Origin: Dehalococcoidia bacterium
GTDB lineage: Bacteria; Chloroflexota; Dehalococcoidia; Bin125
Reading direction: 5' to 3'
Assembly: GCA_963555985.3 (NCBI GenBank)
Contig: OY820591.1
Span: 2,752,001 to 2,816,000, forward strand
DNA length: 64,000 bases
The first letter of the stretch is position 1; every line of letters begins with the position of its first letter. The position numbers were made by a program, and so were the translations under genes. Shown here in pieces: positions 1 to 56,905 of the stretch. The notes beneath the pieces were generated by a model. That model was not told the DNA's origin. It did no database searches and saw only the letters and a program-made list of their open reading frames with translations.

Positions 1-744
1 GCAGAATGGATCGAGCACGAGATCGCCCGGATTGCTAGAGGCGCGAATGATGCGTTCGTAGAGCGCGAGCGGTTTCTGGGTGGGATAGCCCATGCGCTCT
101 TTGGCCATGTTATTGAGCGAGGGGATGTCGCTCCACACATCGAGCATTCCCTTTTGCTTGCCGGCCATCAGTTGGCTTGTCGCCGCCACTTTGGGCTTAT
201 CGAAGACATAGGAGGCCGACTTGGAGTAGAACAGAATCACGTCGTGCTTACGCGAGTAGTACTTCGGAGAGCTGCCACCCAGTCCATACGTCCAGATGAT
301 CTCGTTGATAAATCGCGCTCGCCCGAAGATGGCGTCGAGTAGGGACTTGAGGTAGTGGCTGGCGGTTGGGTCGCAGTGGAGGTAGAGGCTGCCGTCGTCG
401 CGGAGGACTCGGTGCATTTCGAGCAGGCGGACACCCAGCCAGCAGAGGAAGGCGGCCATGTCTTCGCCGGCGGCGGCTCGGGCGGCTTCGATTACTTGCC
501 AGACGGCGGGCCAGTCGTCCTGGATGGCGTCGACCCAGTCCTGGTGGACGTCTTTGTCCCAGCTCCAGCGGTCTTCGAACTTGGCGCCGGCGGCGAGGGA
601 GTCGGGGGTGGCGTGGAAGTCGCGGCCTTTGTTGAAGGGCGGGTCGGTGGCTATGAGGTGGATGGTGTTGGAGTTGAGGCCTCGGAGGAAGGGGAGGTTG
701 TCGCCGTGGAAGAGGGTTCGGTTGGTGAAGTTGGGGGTGGTCAT
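1..744 (-). CDS. Beta-class N6-adenine/N4-cytosine DNA methyltransferase (5' part; runs off the window start)
   Basis: Not in the ORF track. Manual translation from ATG at 744: MTTPNFTNRTLFHGDNL...IATDPPFN (motif IV)...GSLYLHCDPTASHYLK...GYPTQKPLALYERIIRASSNPGDLVLDPFC (start of motif I); open frame to base 1. Confidence 0.92.
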   Translation of the reverse strand, partial: MTTPNFTNRTLFHGDNLPFLRGLNSNTIHLIATDPPFNKGRDFHATPDSLAAGAKFEDRWSWDKDVHQDWVDAIQDDWPAVWQVIEAARAAAGEDMAAFLCWLGVRLLEMHRVLRDDGSLYLHCDPTASHYLKSLLDAIFGRARFINEIIWTYGLGGSSPKYYSRKHDVILFYSKSASYVFDKPKVAATSQLMAGKQKGMLDVWSDIPSLNNMAKERMGYPTQKPLALYERIIRASSNPGDLVLDPFC

Positions 745-953: not shown

Positions 954-2015
954 CTAGGGGGTGTCTGGCTGGGGTTGTTGGCGGAGAGGGAGTTGGAAGA
1001 GCCAGAGGAATAGCAGGCCCAGGATTGAGATCGGGATGAGCACTAGCCCGTGCAGGGTTGCGGCGTAGGCGATTGCGGCTTCTTCTGCGGCTTCTGGGCC
1101 TACTGCTCCGAGGGTGGGCAGCCAGATTAGTAGCACGGCTTTGGTTGCCCACTCGAACGGTCCTACTCCGCCTGAGGTGGAGGGGGCGGTGATGAGTAGG
1201 TTCGCTCCGGCTGCGACGAGTAGATAGACGACGAAGGGCAGGCCCAATCCGAAGGCTTTGCCGACCATCCAGTACATCACCGCTTCGAGGCCCCAGGCGA
1301 GGAAGCTGGCGACCAGCGCGCCGATGACTTGGCGGCGGTTCGCCTGGGCGGACATGCCGACGATCACGGGTTGCAGCCATGACCACTGGCGCCCGCGCTG
1401 TCCAGGCAGGCGGCGGAGGAGGTTGCGGGCGATCCGTTCGGCGTCGCGGGGACGGCGCGCGACCGCTCCGAAGACGAGGAAGGCTCCGATGATGCCGAAG
1501 ATGAGGAAGCCCATCGCGGCGGTCAAGGCGTCGCCGGCGTAGGTCATGCCGTCCAATCCGACCAGGCTCGCGCCGACTCCGGCGCAGAGGAAGAGGGTCA
1601 GCATGAGGCCGTCGTAGACGCGAGTCATGAAGATGCTGGAGAGTCCGGACAGGCGCGAGATTGCGTGACGCTGGTAGAGGACGTGGGCGCGGACCAGCTC
1701 GCCCGCGCGGAGCGGGAGCACGTTGTTGACGCCGAAGCCGATGGCGACGATCGGGAACAGCCGCCACCAGGCAATGGTTTCGATGTGCAGGAGGAGGTAG
1801 TGCCAGCGCCAGGCGCGGGCGGCGACGCCGGCGAAGTAGACGCCCAGGGCGGGGGCGATCCACCAGGCAGAGACTTCGGTGAAGGCTCGTCCCACCTGTG
1901 CGAAGTCGGTATGGCGCAGGAAGAGGACGATGAAGACGGTGCTGCCGCCTACGCCCAAGAGGGCGCGCGCTGTCCGACCCGTCGCCCAGGGCGGAGGGCG
2001 CAGACTCCGCCGCAC
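954..2015 (-). CDS. Lysylphosphatidylglycerol synthase TM region / flippase-like membrane protein (UPF0104)
   Basis: Polytopic membrane protein with RAWRW, NNVLPLRAGELVRA and APSTSGGVGPFE motifs; exact start uncertain. Confidence 0.82.
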   Translation of the reverse strand: MRRSLRPPPWATGRTARALLGVGGSTVFIVLFLRHTDFAQVGRAFTEVSAWWIAPALGVYFAGVAARAWRWHYLLLHIETIAWWRLFPIVAIGFGVNNVLPLRAGELVRAHVLYQRHAISRLSGLSSIFMTRVYDGLMLTLFLCAGVGASLVGLDGMTYAGDALTAAMGFLIFGIIGAFLVFGAVARRPRDAERIARNLLRRLPGQRGRQWSWLQPVIVGMSAQANRRQVIGALVASFLAWGLEAVMYWMVGKAFGLGLPFVVYLLVAAGANLLITAPSTSGGVGPFEWATKAVLLIWLPTLGAVGPEAAEEAAIAYAATLHGLVLIPISILGLLFLWLFQLPLRQQPQPDTP

Positions 2016-14484: not shown

Positions 14485-15249
14485 CTACTCAGTTTCGACC
14501 TCTCTCCGCTCCCGCAGGATCGTGTGGAAGACGGCTGCGAACAGCGCCCCCAGCGCCGGTGCGAGCCAGTAGACCCAGTGATCGGCCCAATGCCAGCCCA
14601 GGGCTGCCGGACCGAATGATCGGGCCGGATTCATGGACGCGCCGCTCACGTCGCCGCCCATTGAGACGGCGGCGGCGATGTATAGCCCCACTGCGATCGC
14701 GAAGACGGGCGCGCGATGGCGGCGCTCGGCGAGGAGCAGGATTGCGTAGACGAGGAAGAAGGTGAGCACGATCTCCAGGCCGATTGTTTGCCAGAGCGGG
14801 CCGCCGGGGCGGGTTGCTCCGAGCCATGAGAAGCCCTCTCCGGTGTGGTTGCGGAACAGTCCGTGCAGCACCGATCCCGCAATCAGCGCCCCGGCGATCT
14901 GCGCCGCGATGTAGGGAATTAGCCGCCGACCCTCAAGCCGTCCGGTGAGCCAGAGACCCAGCGAGACCGCCGGATTCAGGTGCGCGCCGGAGATCGCCCA
15001 GAACGCGAAGATCATCACCGCGACACCGGCGCCGTTGATTAGCCCCACGCCCAGCATGCCCAGGTTGCCGTCGGCCCACCAGTTGACGTGACCCGAACCA
15101 GCGCAGAACAGCACCAGTCCGAACGTGCCCAGCACCTCCGCCATCAGCACTCGCGCCTCCTGCGGCAGGCGCTCCGTGTCGAGACCCACGCGCTCCAGCA
15201 ATCCCTCGAGCGGGCTGAGCGGTCCCGTGATCGCCTCGCGTGCGCTCAT
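14485..15249 (-). CDS. Aquaporin (MIP family)
   Basis: AEVLGTF, ISGAHLNPAVS, GASMNPARSFGPA, HWVYW. Confidence 0.96.
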   Translation of the reverse strand: MSAREAITGPLSPLEGLLERVGLDTERLPQEARVLMAEVLGTFGLVLFCAGSGHVNWWADGNLGMLGVGLINGAGVAVMIFAFWAISGAHLNPAVSLGLWLTGRLEGRRLIPYIAAQIAGALIAGSVLHGLFRNHTGEGFSWLGATRPGGPLWQTIGLEIVLTFFLVYAILLLAERRHRAPVFAIAVGLYIAAAVSMGGDVSGASMNPARSFGPAALGWHWADHWVYWLAPALGALFAAVFHTILRERREVETE

Positions 15250-15313
15250 GCATCACCTCGGTTCATCCACGTGATCGCCTCGCGTGCGCTCATGCATCAC
15301 CTCGGTTCATCCA
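15226..15313. repeat. Perfect 44-bp tandem duplication over the aquaporin start codon
   Basis: cgtgatcgcctcgcgtgcgctcatgcatcacctcggttcatcca at 15226-15269 and 15270-15313. Confidence 0.95.
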
Positions 15314-20689: not shown

Positions 20690-21061
20690 ATGGTCAAGAC
20701 CTGCGACTGGCGAGACTGCAGCGCCCCCATCTACCGGAAACACATTCATCCCGCCACCCTCTATGAGCAGGACGTGTGCCTGACCCACTGGGCATTCCTC
20801 CGGCATACGGATGTGCTCGATACCCACACCCGTCAACTCAGCGAGCACAAAGATCTCTTGGCTGCGCTGGTAGAAGGCCAGAAAGCCTTGGTAGAAGGTC
20901 AAAACAGGCAGAACCTTATCCTCGAGCGCCACTCGCAGCAACTCGACCGCCACGAACAGCTGCTCGACCAGCTGACTAACCAACAGATCCGCCTGAACGA
21001 ACGTTTTGACCGCCTGATTGATGTGCTGGAACCAGTGCTCGTACAAGCCCACTCTCACTGA
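20690..21061 (+). CDS. Hypothetical protein: N-terminal Cys/His cluster plus coiled coil
   Basis: ATG after GGAG; CxxxxC..HxH..CxxH followed by heptad repeats (LVEGQKA LVEGQ). Confidence 0.6.
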   Translation: MVKTCDWRDCSAPIYRKHIHPATLYEQDVCLTHWAFLRHTDVLDTHTRQLSEHKDLLAALVEGQKALVEGQNRQNLILERHSQQLDRHEQLLDQLTNQQIRLNERFDRLIDVLEPVLVQAHSH

Positions 21062-21177
21062 GTCCGGGCCGCAATGCCCGGCGGAATTCGCCGCCCCGCC
21101 ACGTACTGTCAGATCCGCAAGCGCCGTTAGGCTATCTGGGATGGCCAGAGATCACGTTGGACACTGAGGAGCCCACG

Positions 21178-22185
21178 ATGACCCGACGCATTGGCATGGG
21201 ATTCGACTGGCAAGGCTCGATGAACCGCGAGACGGCGCTCAAGCGCGCTCAGATCGCCGACGAGGTCGGGATCGACTCGCTCTGGGTCGCGGAGGCCTGG
21301 GGGCAGGATGCCTTCACCACGCTCGTCCAGCTCGCGGAACGGACGCAGAGCGTTCAGGTCGGCACGAGCATCGTCAACATCTACTCGCGCACCCCGGCCG
21401 CGCTGGCGCAACACTTCGCCACCATCGACGAACTCTCCGAAGGCCGCGTGATCGTCGGTTTGGGCAACAGCGGGCCGCTCGTGATCGAGCACTTTCACGG
21501 CGTGCCTTTCCAGCCCGCCTTCAAGCGGATGCGCGAGACCGTCGAGATCATGAAGATCCTGTTCTCCGGTCAGCGCCTCAACTACGACGGCGACATTTTC
21601 AAGCTCCAGCGCGGCTTCACCCTGCGCTTCGACACCTACCGCAAGCAGGTGCCGATCTACCTGGCGACGCTCAACCCCAAGTCGGTCAGGATGACCGCCG
21701 AGATCTCCGACGGCTGGCTGCCGGTGATGATTCCGCTTGACCGGCTGGCGGAGGAGATCGGCCAAGTCAACCAGTGGGTGGTCGAAGCGGGTAAAGACCC
21801 GGCTGACTTCACCGTCCGCGCGCCGGGCGGCGTCACCGTCGCCAATACTCCCGAAGCCAAGGGCCGCGCCCGCGCCGCCCAAGCCGGCACGCTCGCCTTT
21901 TACTGCGCGCGGATGGGCGAGTTCTACTATCGCCAACTCTCGCGTCAGGGCTACGAAGACGAAGCCAACGCCGTCCGCATCGCCTGGCAGGACGGCGGCG
22001 GCGCAGCCGGCGCTCAGGCGATCCCCGAGGACATGCTGCTCCAGTTCGGTTTCGTCGGCACGACCGAAGAGTGCGTCGAACGTCTGGAACAGGAGCAGGC
22101 CGCCGGCGCGCTGCTGCACTCGGTCAACGTGATGGAGCAGGACCCCAACGAGTTCGGGAAGATTCTCGAAGCGCTCAAGGGCTAA
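21178..22185 (+). CDS. LLM-class flavin/F420-dependent oxidoreductase
   Basis: LWVAEAWGQDA, GTSIVNIYSRTPA, SEGRVIVGLG, DGWLP. Confidence 0.93.
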   Translation: MTRRIGMGFDWQGSMNRETALKRAQIADEVGIDSLWVAEAWGQDAFTTLVQLAERTQSVQVGTSIVNIYSRTPAALAQHFATIDELSEGRVIVGLGNSGPLVIEHFHGVPFQPAFKRMRETVEIMKILFSGQRLNYDGDIFKLQRGFTLRFDTYRKQVPIYLATLNPKSVRMTAEISDGWLPVMIPLDRLAEEIGQVNQWVVEAGKDPADFTVRAPGGVTVANTPEAKGRARAAQAGTLAFYCARMGEFYYRQLSRQGYEDEANAVRIAWQDGGGAAGAQAIPEDMLLQFGFVGTTEECVERLEQEQAAGALLHSVNVMEQDPNEFGKILEALKG

Positions 22186-22218
22186 GGTGGAACCAGCGAC
22201 GGCGCTGGAGTCCCCACA

Positions 22219-23673
22219 ATGGCCGATCCCAACTGGGCCAACCGCACCATCTGGACTGCCGACAACCTCGATGTCATGCGCGGCATGAACTCGGAGTCGG
22301 TGGATCTGATCTATCTGGATCCGCCCTTCAACAGCAACCGGGACTACGCCGCCCCGATTGGCTCCGCCGCCGCCGAAGCTGCCTTCAAAGACACTTGGAC
22401 GCTCAGCGACGTAGATCTCGCCTGGCACGGCGAGATCGCAGAATCGAATCCGGACCTCTACGGCATCGTCGACGCTGCCGGACTCGGCCACAGCAAGCCG
22501 ATGAAGGCCTACCTGATCATGATGATCGTGCGCCTGGTCGAGATGCGCCGCATCCTCAAGCCGAACGGCAGCATCTACTTGCACTGCGATCCGACCGCCA
22601 ACGCCTGGTTGACCGCGGCCATGGATTGCGTTTTCGGACAGGAGCAGTTCCAGCAAGTCATCATCTGGAAACGCACATCAGCGCACAACGACCGGCTCTT
22701 CGGCAGTGTCTGCGACACCATCCTCTACTACGCCCGCGAAGGCGCAACGCAAAACCTGGACCACATCCGCGTCCCCTTGGATCGGGACTACGTAGACAGC
22801 TTCTACCGTCACGAGGACGAACGCGGACGATATCGAGCGGGCGATCTCACGGCAGCCGGTGAACGGACAGGCGAGTCGGGCGAGCCGTGGCGCGGTATCG
22901 ACCCAACCGAAGTGAGCCGCCACTGGGCGGTACCGCGCACCGGCGCATACGCCGACTACATTGTCCGCTTCCTGCCGGACTATCTCGAAATCGAAAGTTC
23001 GCTGGCCCGTCTCGATACCTTGGACGAGGCCGGTTTCATTCATTGGCCAGCGGAGCCGGGTGGCGTCCCTCAGCTCAAGCGCTACCTCGACGCTTCACCC
23101 GGTCAGATCCCGGGCAATCTCTGGGACGACATCCCGCCACTGGGCGCGCGTGCCAAGGAACGGGTCGGCTATCCCACTCAGAAACCGCTCCGTTTGCTGG
23201 AGCGGATCATCCTCGCTTCCTCCAACCCGGGTGATGTCGTGCTCGATCCGTTCTGCGGCTGTGCGACCGCCTGCGTCGCCGCCGAGAAGCTGGACCGTCA
23301 GTGGGCCGGGATTGACCTCTCACCCGTCGCGCACGCGCTGGCGCACACACGCTTTCAGAACGAGTTGGGACTCACCTCTTTCAGCGTCACGCATCGCAGC
23401 GACATCCCCCAACGCACCGATTTGGGCGTCCTGCCCTCTTACAAGACGCATAAGCACACCCTCTACGGCAGGCAGGAGGGACTCTGCACCGGTTGCAACA
23501 CGCTCTTCCCCTTCCGCAATATGACGATTGTCCACATCCTCGCCCGCTCGCGCGGGGGCAGCGATCACTTCGACAACCTGCAACTGCTCTGCAACGCCTG
23601 CAACTCGCTCAAGGGCGCGAACTCGCAGGAGTGGTTCGTGGCCGAACTGCTCCAGCGCGGGATTCGCAACTGA
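22219..23673 (+). CDS. Beta-class DNA methyltransferase fused to C-terminal HNH domain (copy 1)
   Basis: IYLDPPFN (motif IV), YPTQKP, LDPFCGCAT (motif I); C-terminal CxxC...H...GG...NLQLLCxxCN. Confidence 0.93.
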   Translation: MADPNWANRTIWTADNLDVMRGMNSESVDLIYLDPPFNSNRDYAAPIGSAAAEAAFKDTWTLSDVDLAWHGEIAESNPDLYGIVDAAGLGHSKPMKAYLIMMIVRLVEMRRILKPNGSIYLHCDPTANAWLTAAMDCVFGQEQFQQVIIWKRTSAHNDRLFGSVCDTILYYAREGATQNLDHIRVPLDRDYVDSFYRHEDERGRYRAGDLTAAGERTGESGEPWRGIDPTEVSRHWAVPRTGAYADYIVRFLPDYLEIESSLARLDTLDEAGFIHWPAEPGGVPQLKRYLDASPGQIPGNLWDDIPPLGARAKERVGYPTQKPLRLLERIILASSNPGDVVLDPFCGCATACVAAEKLDRQWAGIDLSPVAHALAHTRFQNELGLTSFSVTHRSDIPQRTDLGVLPSYKTHKHTLYGRQEGLCTGCNTLFPFRNMTIVHILARSRGGSDHFDNLQLLCNACNSLKGANSQEWFVAELLQRGIRN

Positions 23674-23719
23674 CGGCTAGGGTGAGAGCAACCGGCGACT
23701 GAGGTGGGAAGGCGTCGCG

Positions 23720-25168
23720 ATGGCAGATCCCAACTGGGCCAACCGCACCATCTGGACTGCCGACAACCTCGATGTCATGCGCGGCATGAACAGCGAGTCG
23801 GTGGATCTGATCTATCTGGATCTACCCTTCAACACCAATCGGGATTACGAAGCGCCAATCGGCAGCGAAGCTGCGGGCGCTGCGTTTAAGGACACTTGGA
23901 CGCTCAGCGACGTCGACGAAGCCTGGCATGGTGAAGTCGCTGAGCGTCAACCGGGCGTCTACGCCGCCTGCGACGCAGCAGGCGCGATCCATGGCTCGCC
24001 CATGAAGGCGTATCTCATCTACATGGGCGTTCGCCTCCTGGAGATGCGCCGCCTGCTCAAGCCCACCGGCAGCATCTATCTCCACTGCGATCCCACTGCC
24101 GGCCACTACCTCAAGATGCTGTTGGACGCCGTCTTCGGACAAGCGAATTTTCGCAACGAGATCGTCTGGAAGCGGACAAACCACTCGAAAGGCACCGGCG
24201 ATGCCGATCGGACCTTCGGCTCTGTCACCGATTCGATCTTTTTCTACACGATGAGCGGCTCTTACGACTTGCACCCACGCGACGAAGAGCGAATCCCCGG
24301 CCCTCCGCGAAACGGCGAGTACGACGACGAGCAAGGGCGCCGTTATCGCTCCGGCCCGCTTGATGCGGAAGGAACGCGGGAGGGTACCTCCGGCCAGCCC
24401 TGGCGCGATACCGATCCAACATCCGTCGGACGGCACTGGGCTGTGCCCGGCCGGGACAAGATGCCGGATTGGGTTGAGCTCCCGGACGAGTATGAAGACC
24501 TGTCCACGCAAGAGAAGCTCGACGTACTCAATGCAGCCGGCATGATTCACTGGCCGCGCCGCAGAGGCGGCAAACCCCGTTTTCGTCTCTACGCAGATGT
24601 CGATGATCGGCTCAAGAGCCTATGGGACGACATCAACCGGGCAGGCGGCTCGGAACGAACCGGCTACCGAACCCAGAAGCCGCTGAAGCTGCTCAAGCGA
24701 ATCATCGGGGCGTCGTCCAACGAAGGTGAGGTCGTGCTCGATCCGTTCTGCGGTTGCGCTACTGCTTGTGTCGCTGCTGAGGACCTGGGCCGGCAATGGG
24801 TTGGCATCGACTTGTCGGAGATGGCCGACCAGCTCGTGCGATCGCGATTTCGGCGCGAACTCGGCCTCACCTCGTTCACTGTTACGCATCGCAGCGACAT
24901 CCCCCAACGCACCGATTTGGGCGTCCTGCCCTCTTACAAGACGCACAAGCACACGCTCTACGGCAGGCAGGAGGGACTTTGCGCCGGTTGCAACACGCTC
25001 TTCCCCTTCCGCAATATGACGATTGTCCATATCATCGCCCGCTCGCGCGGGGGCAGCGATCACTTCGACAACCTGCAACTGCTCTGCAACGCCTGCAACT
25101 CGCTCAAGGGCGCGAACTCGCAGGAGTGGTTCGTGGCCGAACTGCTCGAGCGCGGGATTCGCAACTGA
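23720..25168 (+). CDS. Beta-class DNA methyltransferase fused to C-terminal HNH domain (copy 2, DLPF variant)
   Basis: Same architecture; motif IV reads DLPF; YRTQKP, LDPFCGCAT; HNH tail nearly identical to copy 1. Confidence 0.92.
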   Translation: MADPNWANRTIWTADNLDVMRGMNSESVDLIYLDLPFNTNRDYEAPIGSEAAGAAFKDTWTLSDVDEAWHGEVAERQPGVYAACDAAGAIHGSPMKAYLIYMGVRLLEMRRLLKPTGSIYLHCDPTAGHYLKMLLDAVFGQANFRNEIVWKRTNHSKGTGDADRTFGSVTDSIFFYTMSGSYDLHPRDEERIPGPPRNGEYDDEQGRRYRSGPLDAEGTREGTSGQPWRDTDPTSVGRHWAVPGRDKMPDWVELPDEYEDLSTQEKLDVLNAAGMIHWPRRRGGKPRFRLYADVDDRLKSLWDDINRAGGSERTGYRTQKPLKLLKRIIGASSNEGEVVLDPFCGCATACVAAEDLGRQWVGIDLSEMADQLVRSRFRRELGLTSFTVTHRSDIPQRTDLGVLPSYKTHKHTLYGRQEGLCAGCNTLFPFRNMTIVHIIARSRGGSDHFDNLQLLCNACNSLKGANSQEWFVAELLERGIRN

Positions 25169-25171
25169 CGG

Positions 25172-26269
25172 CTAGGCCGCCCATTCGATCCACCAGCCGT
25201 GCGGCGACGACTTCGCCAGCAACTGACGCTCGTACCGACCATCCACGAAGCGCGTGATTGCGAGCTGCGGGTCTTTGGTGTCGGCGATGTCGTCGAGGTA
25301 GAGCTCCAGCGTGACCAGCCAGAGCGGACGCTCGCGGCTGGTGTGTGCGAGTGTCTGCATCAGCCGTTGCCGGCCTTCGGCGGGGAACTGGTAGAGCGCG
25401 ACGGTGGAGTAGACCGTCAGCGCAGCGTCGGCCGGGGTTTCGGCGATCATCTGCGGAAGCAGCTCAACTGCGTCTCCGGCTCGGAGATCGACGGGTGAGG
25501 CCGACAACTCCGCGGCGCTGTCGATTAGACGTTGATGGCGCTCGACGTGTTCGGGCCAGATCAGGGCGCGGAGCCAGCGCAACTCTTCGGGATCGGTGAG
25601 GTCGATCGGATTGAGATCGATCCCGCCCCGGAACCAGACCATGAGCTCATCGGCCAGCGGCGGCAACTCACCCGCGCCGCGCAGTTCCGCCTCTAGCGAC
25701 ACTCGCGCATCCTCGCGGCCCCAGGACGCGGTTTCGTGGCCGCCGCGCAGGTAGCGATAGCGGTAGCGGTCGACGTTGAGGTTGAGTCCGGCGCTGGCGC
25801 CGACGTCGATCAGAGCGAGCGGACGGCCCGACTCGGCCTGCACGATGGAGAAGGTGGGCAGCAGGCAGGTGCAGCGGCGGACTACGTTGGTCTGGGTGCG
25901 ATGGGTGCGGATCAGGTCGATGATCTGCTCGCGGTAGGTGAGGCAGAAGTCGCGGAAGTGGGGGAAGGCGGGCGTCATGGGACGCTCTGCGCCTGCGACG
26001 ATCGGATAGTGGGCCGCGAGTGGGTGCTTCGCGTATTCGCCGCCGCTGAGGAGCAGGTATTGGACGGCGGCGAAGAACATGTTGGGCGCGGGTTGGCGGC
26101 GGCGCTTTTGGGCGGCGATGGCGAGCAACTCGGGATCGAGTGAGACCCCGTAGGCGAGTTCGGCGTACATCGGCGAGGCGAGCCCGGGCGTCTCGATCCG
26201 GGCGAAGCGGTGGAAGACGTCGCGGTAGTGCGCCGCGGTTGGCGCATCGATGCCGTCTCGCTGCGTCAT
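25172..26269 (-). CDS. DUF2332-family protein
   Basis: SPMYAEL, TQTNVVRRC, DVGASAGLNL, GIDLNP, WLRALIWP, PHGWWIEW. Confidence 0.85.
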   Translation of the reverse strand: MTQRDGIDAPTAAHYRDVFHRFARIETPGLASPMYAELAYGVSLDPELLAIAAQKRRRQPAPNMFFAAVQYLLLSGGEYAKHPLAAHYPIVAGAERPMTPAFPHFRDFCLTYREQIIDLIRTHRTQTNVVRRCTCLLPTFSIVQAESGRPLALIDVGASAGLNLNVDRYRYRYLRGGHETASWGREDARVSLEAELRGAGELPPLADELMVWFRGGIDLNPIDLTDPEELRWLRALIWPEHVERHQRLIDSAAELSASPVDLRAGDAVELLPQMIAETPADAALTVYSTVALYQFPAEGRQRLMQTLAHTSRERPLWLVTLELYLDDIADTKDPQLAITRFVDGRYERQLLAKSSPHGWWIEWAA

Positions 26270-56717: not shown

Positions 56718-56905
56718 TATTGCCACGCTCCGCCGCGGCAATCTCGTCGTGTGAGTGACGACGGTGCAGATCGCGGCGAGATACCCGCGGCGGAGCGCGG
56801 GTATGACGGTGTTGCAAGCGCGGGTGTGACGGTGTTGCAGGCGCGGGTGTGACGGTGTTGCAGGCGCAGGTGTGGCGGTGTTTGCGGGCGCGGGTTGTCG
56901 GTGTT
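56718..56905. repeat. REP doublet followed by ~5 tandem 23-bp copies of its right arm
   Basis: gcgcgggtRtgacggtgttgcaR units at 56795, 56818, 56841, 56864 and ~56888, progressively degenerate. Confidence 0.9.

Follow-up and report, generated by a model that had tools for sequence, protein, structure and literature searches.

A window of 64,000 nucleotides (nt), the whole stretch analysed here, from contig OY820591.1 of a Dehalococcoidia bacterium carries two adjacent genes, A and B, that each encode a beta-class amino-methyltransferase (MTase) fused to a C-terminal HNH nuclease domain. The two genes are nearly identical at their ends and strongly diverged in between. In the reading that we consider moderately probable, the ends were recently homogenised between two ancient cores, the family to which the genes belong would consist of one-polypeptide restriction-modification (R-M) enzymes, and the nuclease of this particular pair would be attenuated or dead, leaving either two methylases or a decaying R-M pair. 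An earlier sequence-only reading had described the two units and had interpreted them as a diversifying one-gene R-M or epigenetic system. What that reading saw is confirmed, and what it concluded is supported in part. The locus is laid out as follows, with protein positions in amino acids (aa).

21157..22185, + strand: luciferase-like monooxygenase gene, upstream flank of gene A.
22180..22186, + strand: GGCTAAG, left junction of unit 1; holds the TAA stop of the monooxygenase gene.
22219..23673, + strand: gene A (P0001, 484 aa); beta-class amino-MTase, flexible linker, C-terminal HNH; DPPF at aa 34-37, target-recognition domain (TRD) at about aa 150-315, DPFCGCAT at aa 343-350, HNH at aa 421-484.
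22219..22321, + strand: homogenised 5' end of gene A; against 23720-23822 it has 4 differences in 103 nt.
22322..23388, + strand: diverged core of gene A; the remaining MTase domain including the TRD.
23389..23681, + strand: homogenised 3' end of gene A, comprising linker, HNH, stop codon and the next 8 nt; against 24884-25176 it has 7 differences in 293 nt.
23675..23681, + strand: GGCTAGG, junction of units 1 and 2.
23720..25168, + strand: gene B (P0002, 482 aa); architecture of gene A, with a core of another lineage.
24884..25176, + strand: 3' homogenised block of gene B, partner of 23389-23681.
25170..25176, + strand: GGCTAGG, right junction; holds the stop codon of the DUF2332 gene (CTA on the + strand).
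25172..26269, - strand: DUF2332 gene, convergent flank of gene B.

Genes A and B stand head to tail on the forward strand in the open reading frame (ORF) calls. The three GGCTA(A/G)G copies, spaced exactly 1495 nt apart, are the marks of the repeat-unit junctions, and the two units of about 1.5 kb that had been drawn between 22180, 23675 and 25170 hold. The near identity of the ends likewise stands for the coding blocks, where 4 of 103 and 7 of 293 nt differ, the latter being the number counted by eye; it does not extend to the leaders of 39-45 nt between the GGCTA motif and the ATG, which are about 70% alike. Three of the four differences in the 5' block amount to a single TCG/AGC serine codon swap. 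Through the middle, windows of 60 nt are 32-83% identical, and the whole units are 68% identical. The sliding-window comparison therefore revealed the non-uniform divergence that had been expected of it, and the same contrast appears at silent positions. At third-codon sites the 5' block differs in 2 of 34 cases and the 3' block in 6 of 98, as compared to 194 of 346 for the middle (Fisher p 5e-9 and 3e-21). Synonymous divergence by the Nei-Gojobori method (dS) stays at 0-0.17 towards both ends and exceeds 1, or reaches saturation, over most of the middle. The diverged part had been equated with the TRD; this proved too narrow, as the tract spans the whole MTase domain (aa 35-390) and the codons of the catalytic motifs are themselves saturated with synonymous changes. 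At the protein level A and B are 67% identical by BLAST and 69% in the alignments. Their TRDs are 46% identical, and given this figure it is plausible that the two enzymes recognise different target motifs.

Similar ends might also be produced by purifying selection on conserved domains or by an assembly artefact, and the N-terminal and HNH regions are the best-conserved parts of the family, with mean pairwise identities of 73% and 58%. We find this explanation scarcely credible. Synonymous sites agree as well (dS of 0-0.17 against values above 1), the blocks are just 103 and 293 nt long and hold 11 differences, and both copies lie on one contig of 3,145,412 nt. Orthologues and dispersed paralogues also lack such a pattern. 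Three other genomes that each carry a dispersed pair of family genes (L026/L038, L010/L052 and L040/L068) were used as a control; in all three pairs the ends are not homogenised, and the longest identical run is 15-23 nt as compared to 113 nt in A and B. Purifying selection alone is ruled out by dS, by the third-codon tests and by these dispersed pairs. A same-strand tandem pair was found in none of the 80 best-matching genome loci. Since the dispersed pairs lack the blocks and the 80 loci lack a tandem pair, conversion confined to the ends is a feature of the tandem arrangement, and it is most simply explained by proximity together with the higher starting similarity of the ends.

Phylogenetic placement of the separate parts points in the same direction. 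Trees were built from 257 sequences, comprising 191 proteins and 66 locus ORFs; the other 14 loci did not enter the protein alignments, nine being split over two frames (L023, L034, L035, L038, L043, L051, L063, L071 and L077; these could be pseudogenes or assembly indel errors) and five having an ORF below 400 aa. In the tree of the HNH plus linker, A and B are nearest neighbours at a distance of 0.04, and ten A-type and B-type sequences form an exclusive clade with a support of 0.954. In the tree of the MTase core the distance between A and B is 1.12, placing B at rank 110 of 256, and in the TRD tree the rank is 217 of 256. The only close relative found for the core of gene A is P0003 (86% over the whole protein), while the core of gene B has relatives in P0064 (89%), P0089 (88%) and P0121-P0123, P0117 and P0124 (80-85%). 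The two cores are thus anciently diverged, separate lineages within the family. Two residues also mark the ends. Ala14 is common to the window copies alone, with Gly in all eight orthologues, and Val438 is a derived residue of the window copies alone, where 252 of 257 relatives have Asp. Each of these substitutions must have appeared a single time and then passed from one copy to the other. These comparisons show that recombination, and not purifying selection alone, made the ends nearly identical. The recombination would have been recent and within this genome, by gene conversion or unequal exchange between the tandem copies, and would most likely have started in the first ~100 and last ~290 nt, which were already the best-conserved parts and so would suit a homology-dependent process.

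A different history would begin with a recent tandem duplication of an A-type gene at GGCTARG microhomology, after which the core of the second copy was replaced, through the conserved ends, by an imported B-type allele. The exact 1495-nt spacing of the three junction motifs would follow from it, as would the C-terminal tail of gene B (ANSQEWFVAELL), which equals that of the A-type P0003 where it is unlike that of the closest B-type orthologue, P0064. B-type cores were moreover found in at least seven other protein clusters, and exchange of internal segments is seen among family members. However, the leader from junction to ATG lies outside the replaced tract and is nonetheless only about 70% alike, with indels, and the B-type proteins P0089 and P0121-P0123 also end in SQEWFVAELL-like tails, so that the donor of the ends is ambiguous. 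We judge this history somewhat unlikely and retain homogenisation of the ends of two older lineages as the favoured account. The junction motif itself was considered as a functional or target motif and ruled out, its count not exceeding expectation: GGCTARG is not enriched in the 64-kb window (7 observed, 7.8 expected).

The exchange of segments can be followed well beyond this genome. A protein search returned at least 8000 scored candidates; the 120 matches listed all have the same Pfam architecture at about 58-65% identity. Clustering at 50% left 3123 representatives at E<=1e-30, HNH-less methylases included. The 80 best genome loci, at about 41-64% identity, come from uncultured lineages of many phyla and include one archaeon. 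By the titles of the records, 20 of the 80 belong to Dehalococcoidia, 13 to Ca. Poribacteria, 11 to other Chloroflexota, eight each to Gammaproteobacteria and Alphaproteobacteria, seven to Acidobacteriota, four to Binatia and nine to others, among them the archaeon, a Nitrosopumilus. Several of these names belong to sponge-associated lineages. Plasmid and phage collections gave only relatives of at most 42% identity, nearly all of which lack the HNH part. For mosaicism, 186 members were compared in all 17,205 pairings. HNH regions at least 90% identical occur in 29 pairs, of which 12, counting the window pair, have TRDs at most 50% identical; conversely, seven pairs combine TRDs at least 85% identical with HNH domains at most 70% identical. 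At the DNA level, three pairs of loci from different genome records (L003/L042, L004/L014 and L004/L016) are about 85-90% identical over the first ~400 and last ~450 nt and 30-50% identical across nt ~420-930, with sharp breakpoints. The mosaicism that had been anticipated among relatives is thus seen in both protein pairs and DNA, and we regard the exchange of TRD cassettes between conserved flanks as real across the family, as judged from these alignments.

The sequence-only reading had proposed that conserved flanks permit the exchange of specificity modules, which holds for the family and does not carry over to the tandem locus. In its strongest form the proposal is a programmed diversity generator, in which the identical ends would serve in-cell exchange of specificity modules to yield switchable R-M or epigenetic specificities. 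The near-identical flanks around diverged cores, the TRD exchange across the family, and the movement of TRDs via conserved flanks described for other MTases in the available text of PMC3077401, PMC3467074 and PMC1557822 are all as such a device would have them. We nevertheless consider it decidedly improbable for A and B. The repeats are direct, so that reciprocal exchange amounts to deletion or duplication, and the diverged tract is the whole MTase domain rather than a TRD cassette. There are no inverted repeats at the unit ends, a scan of the ORFs over about 16-31 kb gave no recombinase, no transposase was found nearby, and a tandem pair occurs at none of the 80 related loci. The inverted repeats between modules and the site-specific recombinase that define a shufflon are accordingly both missing from the tandem locus. 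With direct repeats and no invertase, recombination here would therefore delete or duplicate a unit and not shuffle modules. The direct repeats of 103 and 293 nt would still allow loss and gain of units by unequal exchange, giving A+B, A-only and B-only variants.

The assignment of both genes as beta-class MTase-HNH fusions was upheld by domain searches. Pfam N6_N4_Mtase (PF01555) matched A and B at 128 and 124 bits over aa 28-374 (cut-off 26.7), and both proteins matched HNH_5 (PF14279) at 41-44 bits (cut-off 27.5) and HNH (PF01844) at 37-40 bits (cut-off 21.4) over aa 421-474. Protein A displays the permuted beta-class motif order, with DPPF near the N-terminus, a variable middle holding the TRD, and then DPFCGCAT. 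The CxxC...CxxC zinc site of the HNH domain is kept (C423, C426, C458 and C461). A profile of the family matched Type III Mod subunits over query residues 6-359, and its HNH part matched the HNH domains of Cas9/IscB, of a group II intron endonuclease and, weakly, of McrA (6ghc). An AlphaFold model built on a 30-sequence alignment has a mean predicted local distance difference test score (pLDDT) of 79.5 and a predicted template modelling score (pTM) of 0.74; the MTase and TRD body is confident and the linker at residues 407-420 is disordered. By fold the model comes closest to EcoP15I Mod (E 1.8e-16) and next to the N6-adenine beta-class MTases M.BceJIV, MboIIA and RsrI, and N6 of adenine is predicted to be the likelier methylation target. 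PADLOC returned generic MTase_II and MTase_III matches only, and every NCBIfam match fell far under its cut-off.

Three sites in the catalytic motifs distinguish the window copies.

23530..23535, + strand: Val438-His439 (GTC CAC) of gene A, at the Asp-His position of the family.
25025-25030, + strand: Val436-His437 of gene B, inside the 3' homogenised block.
23819..23830, + strand: motif IV of gene B, DLPF (CCG to CTA) instead of DPPF.

Among the 257 relatives, the counts of conserved residues are 252 for Asp438, 254 for His439, 255 for Asn453, 253 for Asn462 and 256 for Pro35. In HNH enzymes the metal is held by Asp and Asn and the His acts as base, as given in the available text of PMC4081073. 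The active site of the window proteins is incomplete by this standard, with Val for Asp in both proteins and the His, N453 and N462 retained. Gene A has DPPF, and gene B is the sole case of DLPF among the aligned relatives. Cleavage by the window HNH domains is doubtful because both have lost the metal-binding Asp, and a working one-gene R-M system at this locus is doubtful for the same reason and because gene B has DLPF. In our account a single Asp-to-Val event at the metal ligand would have reached the second gene by conversion, leaving the nuclease attenuated or dead, and the catalytic motif of gene B would since have begun to drift. The A/B pair would then most likely be either a decaying R-M pair or two methylases that differ in specificity and probably act on adenine-N6. 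A change in motif IV occurs solely alongside an altered nuclease, in a single case; if the nuclease is disarmed before the methylase drifts, this one case has the order that would be expected.

The absence of a separate restriction endonuclease (REase) gene, which had been part of the one-gene interpretation, extends to the family. Clustering of the neighbours at the 80 loci and in the window stretch showed no conserved partner and no separate REase gene, the only family present in more than nine loci being an IS1595 transposase. That part of the claim stands for the family, and the doubt attaches to the working state of A and B. The HNH core is present in 106 of the 150 nearest 50%-cluster representatives. 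Of 13 HNH-less representatives scanned, five have a C-terminal Mrr_cat domain above cut-off (P0245, P0276, P0286, P0306 and P0332), a PD-(D/E)XK type standing in place of the HNH, and two have T5orf172/MUG113 there instead (P0269 and P0327). The nuclease module is thus interchangeable within the family. We infer a one-polypeptide R-M function for the family because the nuclease residues are near-invariant, the HNH is replaced by other nuclease folds, no separate REase gene is found, and TRDs are freely exchanged. The last point counts because free exchange of TRDs is safe only if one TRD serves both activities. In such an enzyme the TRD would dock the protein at its site, the methylase would protect host DNA, and the tethered nuclease would attack sites left unmodified. 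A TRD swap would change protection and attack together, which would explain the free exchange of cassettes and nucleases and a gene that travels alone, sometimes as IS1595 cargo. One member of the wider set, P0194 (1598 aa), has an N-terminal region of about 650 aa of unknown type followed by three beta-class MTase domains with GSGTT-type motif I, differing middles and no HNH, and has the form of a fused tandem array of related methylase modules.

The association with IS1595-type elements was apparent at several loci. An IS1595-type transposase lies near the family gene in 19 of the 80 loci; in 12 of the 80 its gene immediately precedes the family gene on the same strand and often runs up to the start codon. 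All four of the transposases tested carry the DDE_Tnp_IS1595 and Zn_ribbon_IS1595 domains. Terminal inverted repeats enclose transposase and MTase-HNH gene at three of eight loci tested (L058, L036 and L066), and an analysis of the 64 loci far enough from contig ends added a fourth element, without transposase (L032). Positions are those within each locus.

L058, 4948-7428: transposase, MTase-HNH gene and a small unassigned ORF within inverted repeats.
L036, 5016-7226: transposase and MTase-HNH gene within inverted repeats.
L066, 4948-7703: transposase and MTase-HNH gene within inverted repeats, with a small ORF.
L032, 5869-7407: transposase-less unit of 1.5 kb, the MTase-HNH gene alone between perfect 25-nt inverted repeats.

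The small ORFs of L058 and L066 (52 and 57 aa) lie between the cargo gene and the right end and have no Pfam match, and the L032 unit is flanked by an 8-bp target duplication, TTCATTTT. As judged from these arrangements, the family is horizontally mobile and some copies travel as IS1595 cargo. The window copies were considered as cargo of this kind and rejected: they have no transposase, no terminal inverted repeats and no IS end of the GGNAATTATAT type, and the outer GGCTAAG and GGCTAGG are imperfect.

These elements raise the possibility that the HNH domain serves the mobility of its own gene, as a homing or transposition helper, in which case the unit would be a selfish mobile methylase gene. 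On that account one would expect the genes carried within IS1595-type elements, and those that stand alone between the inverted repeats of such elements beside a target duplication, as well as relatives of about 41-64% identity across many phyla and one archaeon. Homing endonucleases also use the HNH and T5orf172 classes. We hold the possibility to be unlikely. A transposase within 6 kb is lacking in 61 of the 80 loci, and at the 48 loci with a stand-alone family gene and enough distance to the contig ends, the short direct repeats on either side do not exceed those of the controls in length and have the same distribution. In addition, a restriction-type Mrr_cat can replace the HNH, and the window copies have no IS ends. 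A restriction role remains our preferred reading of the nuclease in the family at large.

Comparison with described systems places the proteins closest to the Type III Mod subunits, such as EcoP15I Mod and the phase-variable mod alleles of Haemophilus and Neisseria. They share the beta-class order and the central TRD, and these subunits give the best profile and fold matches. Type III mod genes also combine conserved 5' and 3' parts with a hypervariable centre that is read as the TRD (PMC1557822, available text). Unlike them, the window genes have no Res partner and no phase-variation repeat tract, carry a fused C-terminal nuclease, and encode about 480 aa as compared to about 620-640 aa. The Res helicase-nuclease subunit is absent beside the tandem pair, whose flanks are the monooxygenase and DUF2332 genes, and no Res-like cluster was found near the 80 loci. 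Type IIG/IIC enzymes such as the MmeI family and BpuSI are a second point of likeness. They are of the gamma class and about twice the size. Like the present family, they join methylase, nuclease and one TRD per chain, have no separate REase gene and show allelic TRD diversity; these single-polypeptide features are described in the accessible portions of PMC2582602, PMC2731913, PMC3185434 and PMC2853133. A and B agree in having methylase and nuclease domains together with no separate REase gene. The order differs, however: the MmeI family and BpuSI have, in the same partial sources, an N-terminal PD-(D/E)XK domain, a central MTase and a C-terminal TRD, whereas the window proteins start with the beta-class MTase, which contains the TRD, and end with the HNH. 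The 'domain movement' of Helicobacter pylori also exchanges specificity domains via conserved flanks, within and between genes, and is described in the available parts of PMC3077401, PMC3467074 and PMC3983042 for a single species, in its Type I S, Type III and Type IIG genes. In the present case, by contrast, the exchange crosses phyla in a beta-MTase-HNH family, and the homogenised parts of the window pair are gene ends and not TRD flanks.

IS1595 elements with passenger genes resemble the related loci in the upstream transposase, the terminal inverted repeats and the 8-bp target duplication of L032; the window copies have neither transposase nor IS ends. The linkage of R-M genes to transposases, and their flanking by inverted repeats, has been reported (PMC2853133, in the portion available). 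The HNH Type II REases KpnI, Hpy99I and MnlI, together with McrA, share the beta-beta-alpha-metal HNH fold and the CxxC...CxxC zinc site, according to the available text of PMC4081073. These are stand-alone nucleases with DNA recognition of their own, whereas the HNH here is a small appendage of a methylase with Asp changed to Val. We found no published description of the MTase-HNH fusion or of its IS1595 cargo in literature searches that left out most subscription journals. As far as these searches show, the fusion family is widespread and undescribed in the searchable literature, and the mechanisms involved (TRD exchange, gene conversion and IS cargo) are of kinds already known.

Several observations weigh against the combined account of homogenised ends, a restriction family and a disarmed local nuclease. 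The events may have begun with an old tandem pair that underwent repeated conversion or with a recent duplication that took up an imported core, and the leaders, about 70% alike with indels, fit neither order simply. Both ORFs are intact, which speaks against simple decay. The HNH part of the AlphaFold model is weak, with a mean pLDDT per 10-residue block of 39-85 over residues 401-484. In KpnI, an Asp-to-Gly change at the equivalent residue reportedly leaves specific cleavage. Domains classed as HNH or GIY-YIG are also typical of homing and mobility nucleases, and module swapping is no proof of restriction.

A broader proposal can be put forward tentatively, as possible rather than probable. 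The family may represent a hitherto uncharacterised, minimal class of one-chain R-M enzyme of about 480 aa, in which a Mod-like methylase carries a TRD that aims a swappable HNH, Mrr-like or GIY-YIG-like nuclease, spread over bacterial phyla and into archaea partly as IS1595 cargo. The tandem array would then be a substrate for A+B, A-only and B-only methylome variants, the Asp-to-Val change would represent a nuclease disarmed before decay of the methylase, and some of the enrichment that has been reported for PF01555 and PF01844 in the microbiomes of sponges may be due to the family. Should proteins that retain Asp-His cleave unmethylated DNA where their own TRD binds, no smaller modular R-M architecture would be known. 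A single TRD-cassette swap would re-target protection and attack, which would shed light on how the specificity of a defence can be diversified safely, and the scaffold would be a compact one for programmable methylase-nickase tools. With thousands of proteins, many phyla and IS-borne copies, the family is broad enough to be a notable vehicle by which methylomes change in uncultured communities. The window itself offers a clean case of concerted evolution confined to gene ends, and a nuclease substitution that looks inactivating and was copied between paralogues bears on the domestication of toxic R-M genes into orphan methylases.

The remaining observations concern the surroundings of the pair. 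A scan of the tandem locus gave no promoter-like site and one terminator-like site, on the opposite strand within the upstream gene; it suggests read-through from the upstream gene, such a scan being weak evidence. Rfam gave zero matches across the whole 64-kb window. At a distance of 21 kb from the tandem pair the window has another, less closely related member of the family.

1..744, - strand: third family member; 248 aa visible, with DPPF, a short TRD and an end in ...DPFC; C-terminus beyond the left window edge.

Across the N-terminal ~180 aa its identity to A and B is 39-47%, and it adjoins an LPG_synthase_TM gene (954-2015, minus strand). Immediately upstream of the monooxygenase gene, a 122-aa ORF (20693-21058, + strand) combines a Cys/His-rich start with a Gln/Leu-rich, coiled-coil-like tail and has no Pfam match. 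A perfect 44-bp tandem duplication (2.0 copies, 100% match) at 15226-15313 includes GCTCAT, possibly the start region of a minus-strand gene. Between about 51 kb and the right edge of the window, guanine-cytosine (GC) skew lies at 0.13-0.29 in every 1-kb interval other than 53-54 kb, where it is 0.08, and a 23-bp unit repeated 4.8 times (88% matches) lies at 56795-56905 within this region of strong positive skew.

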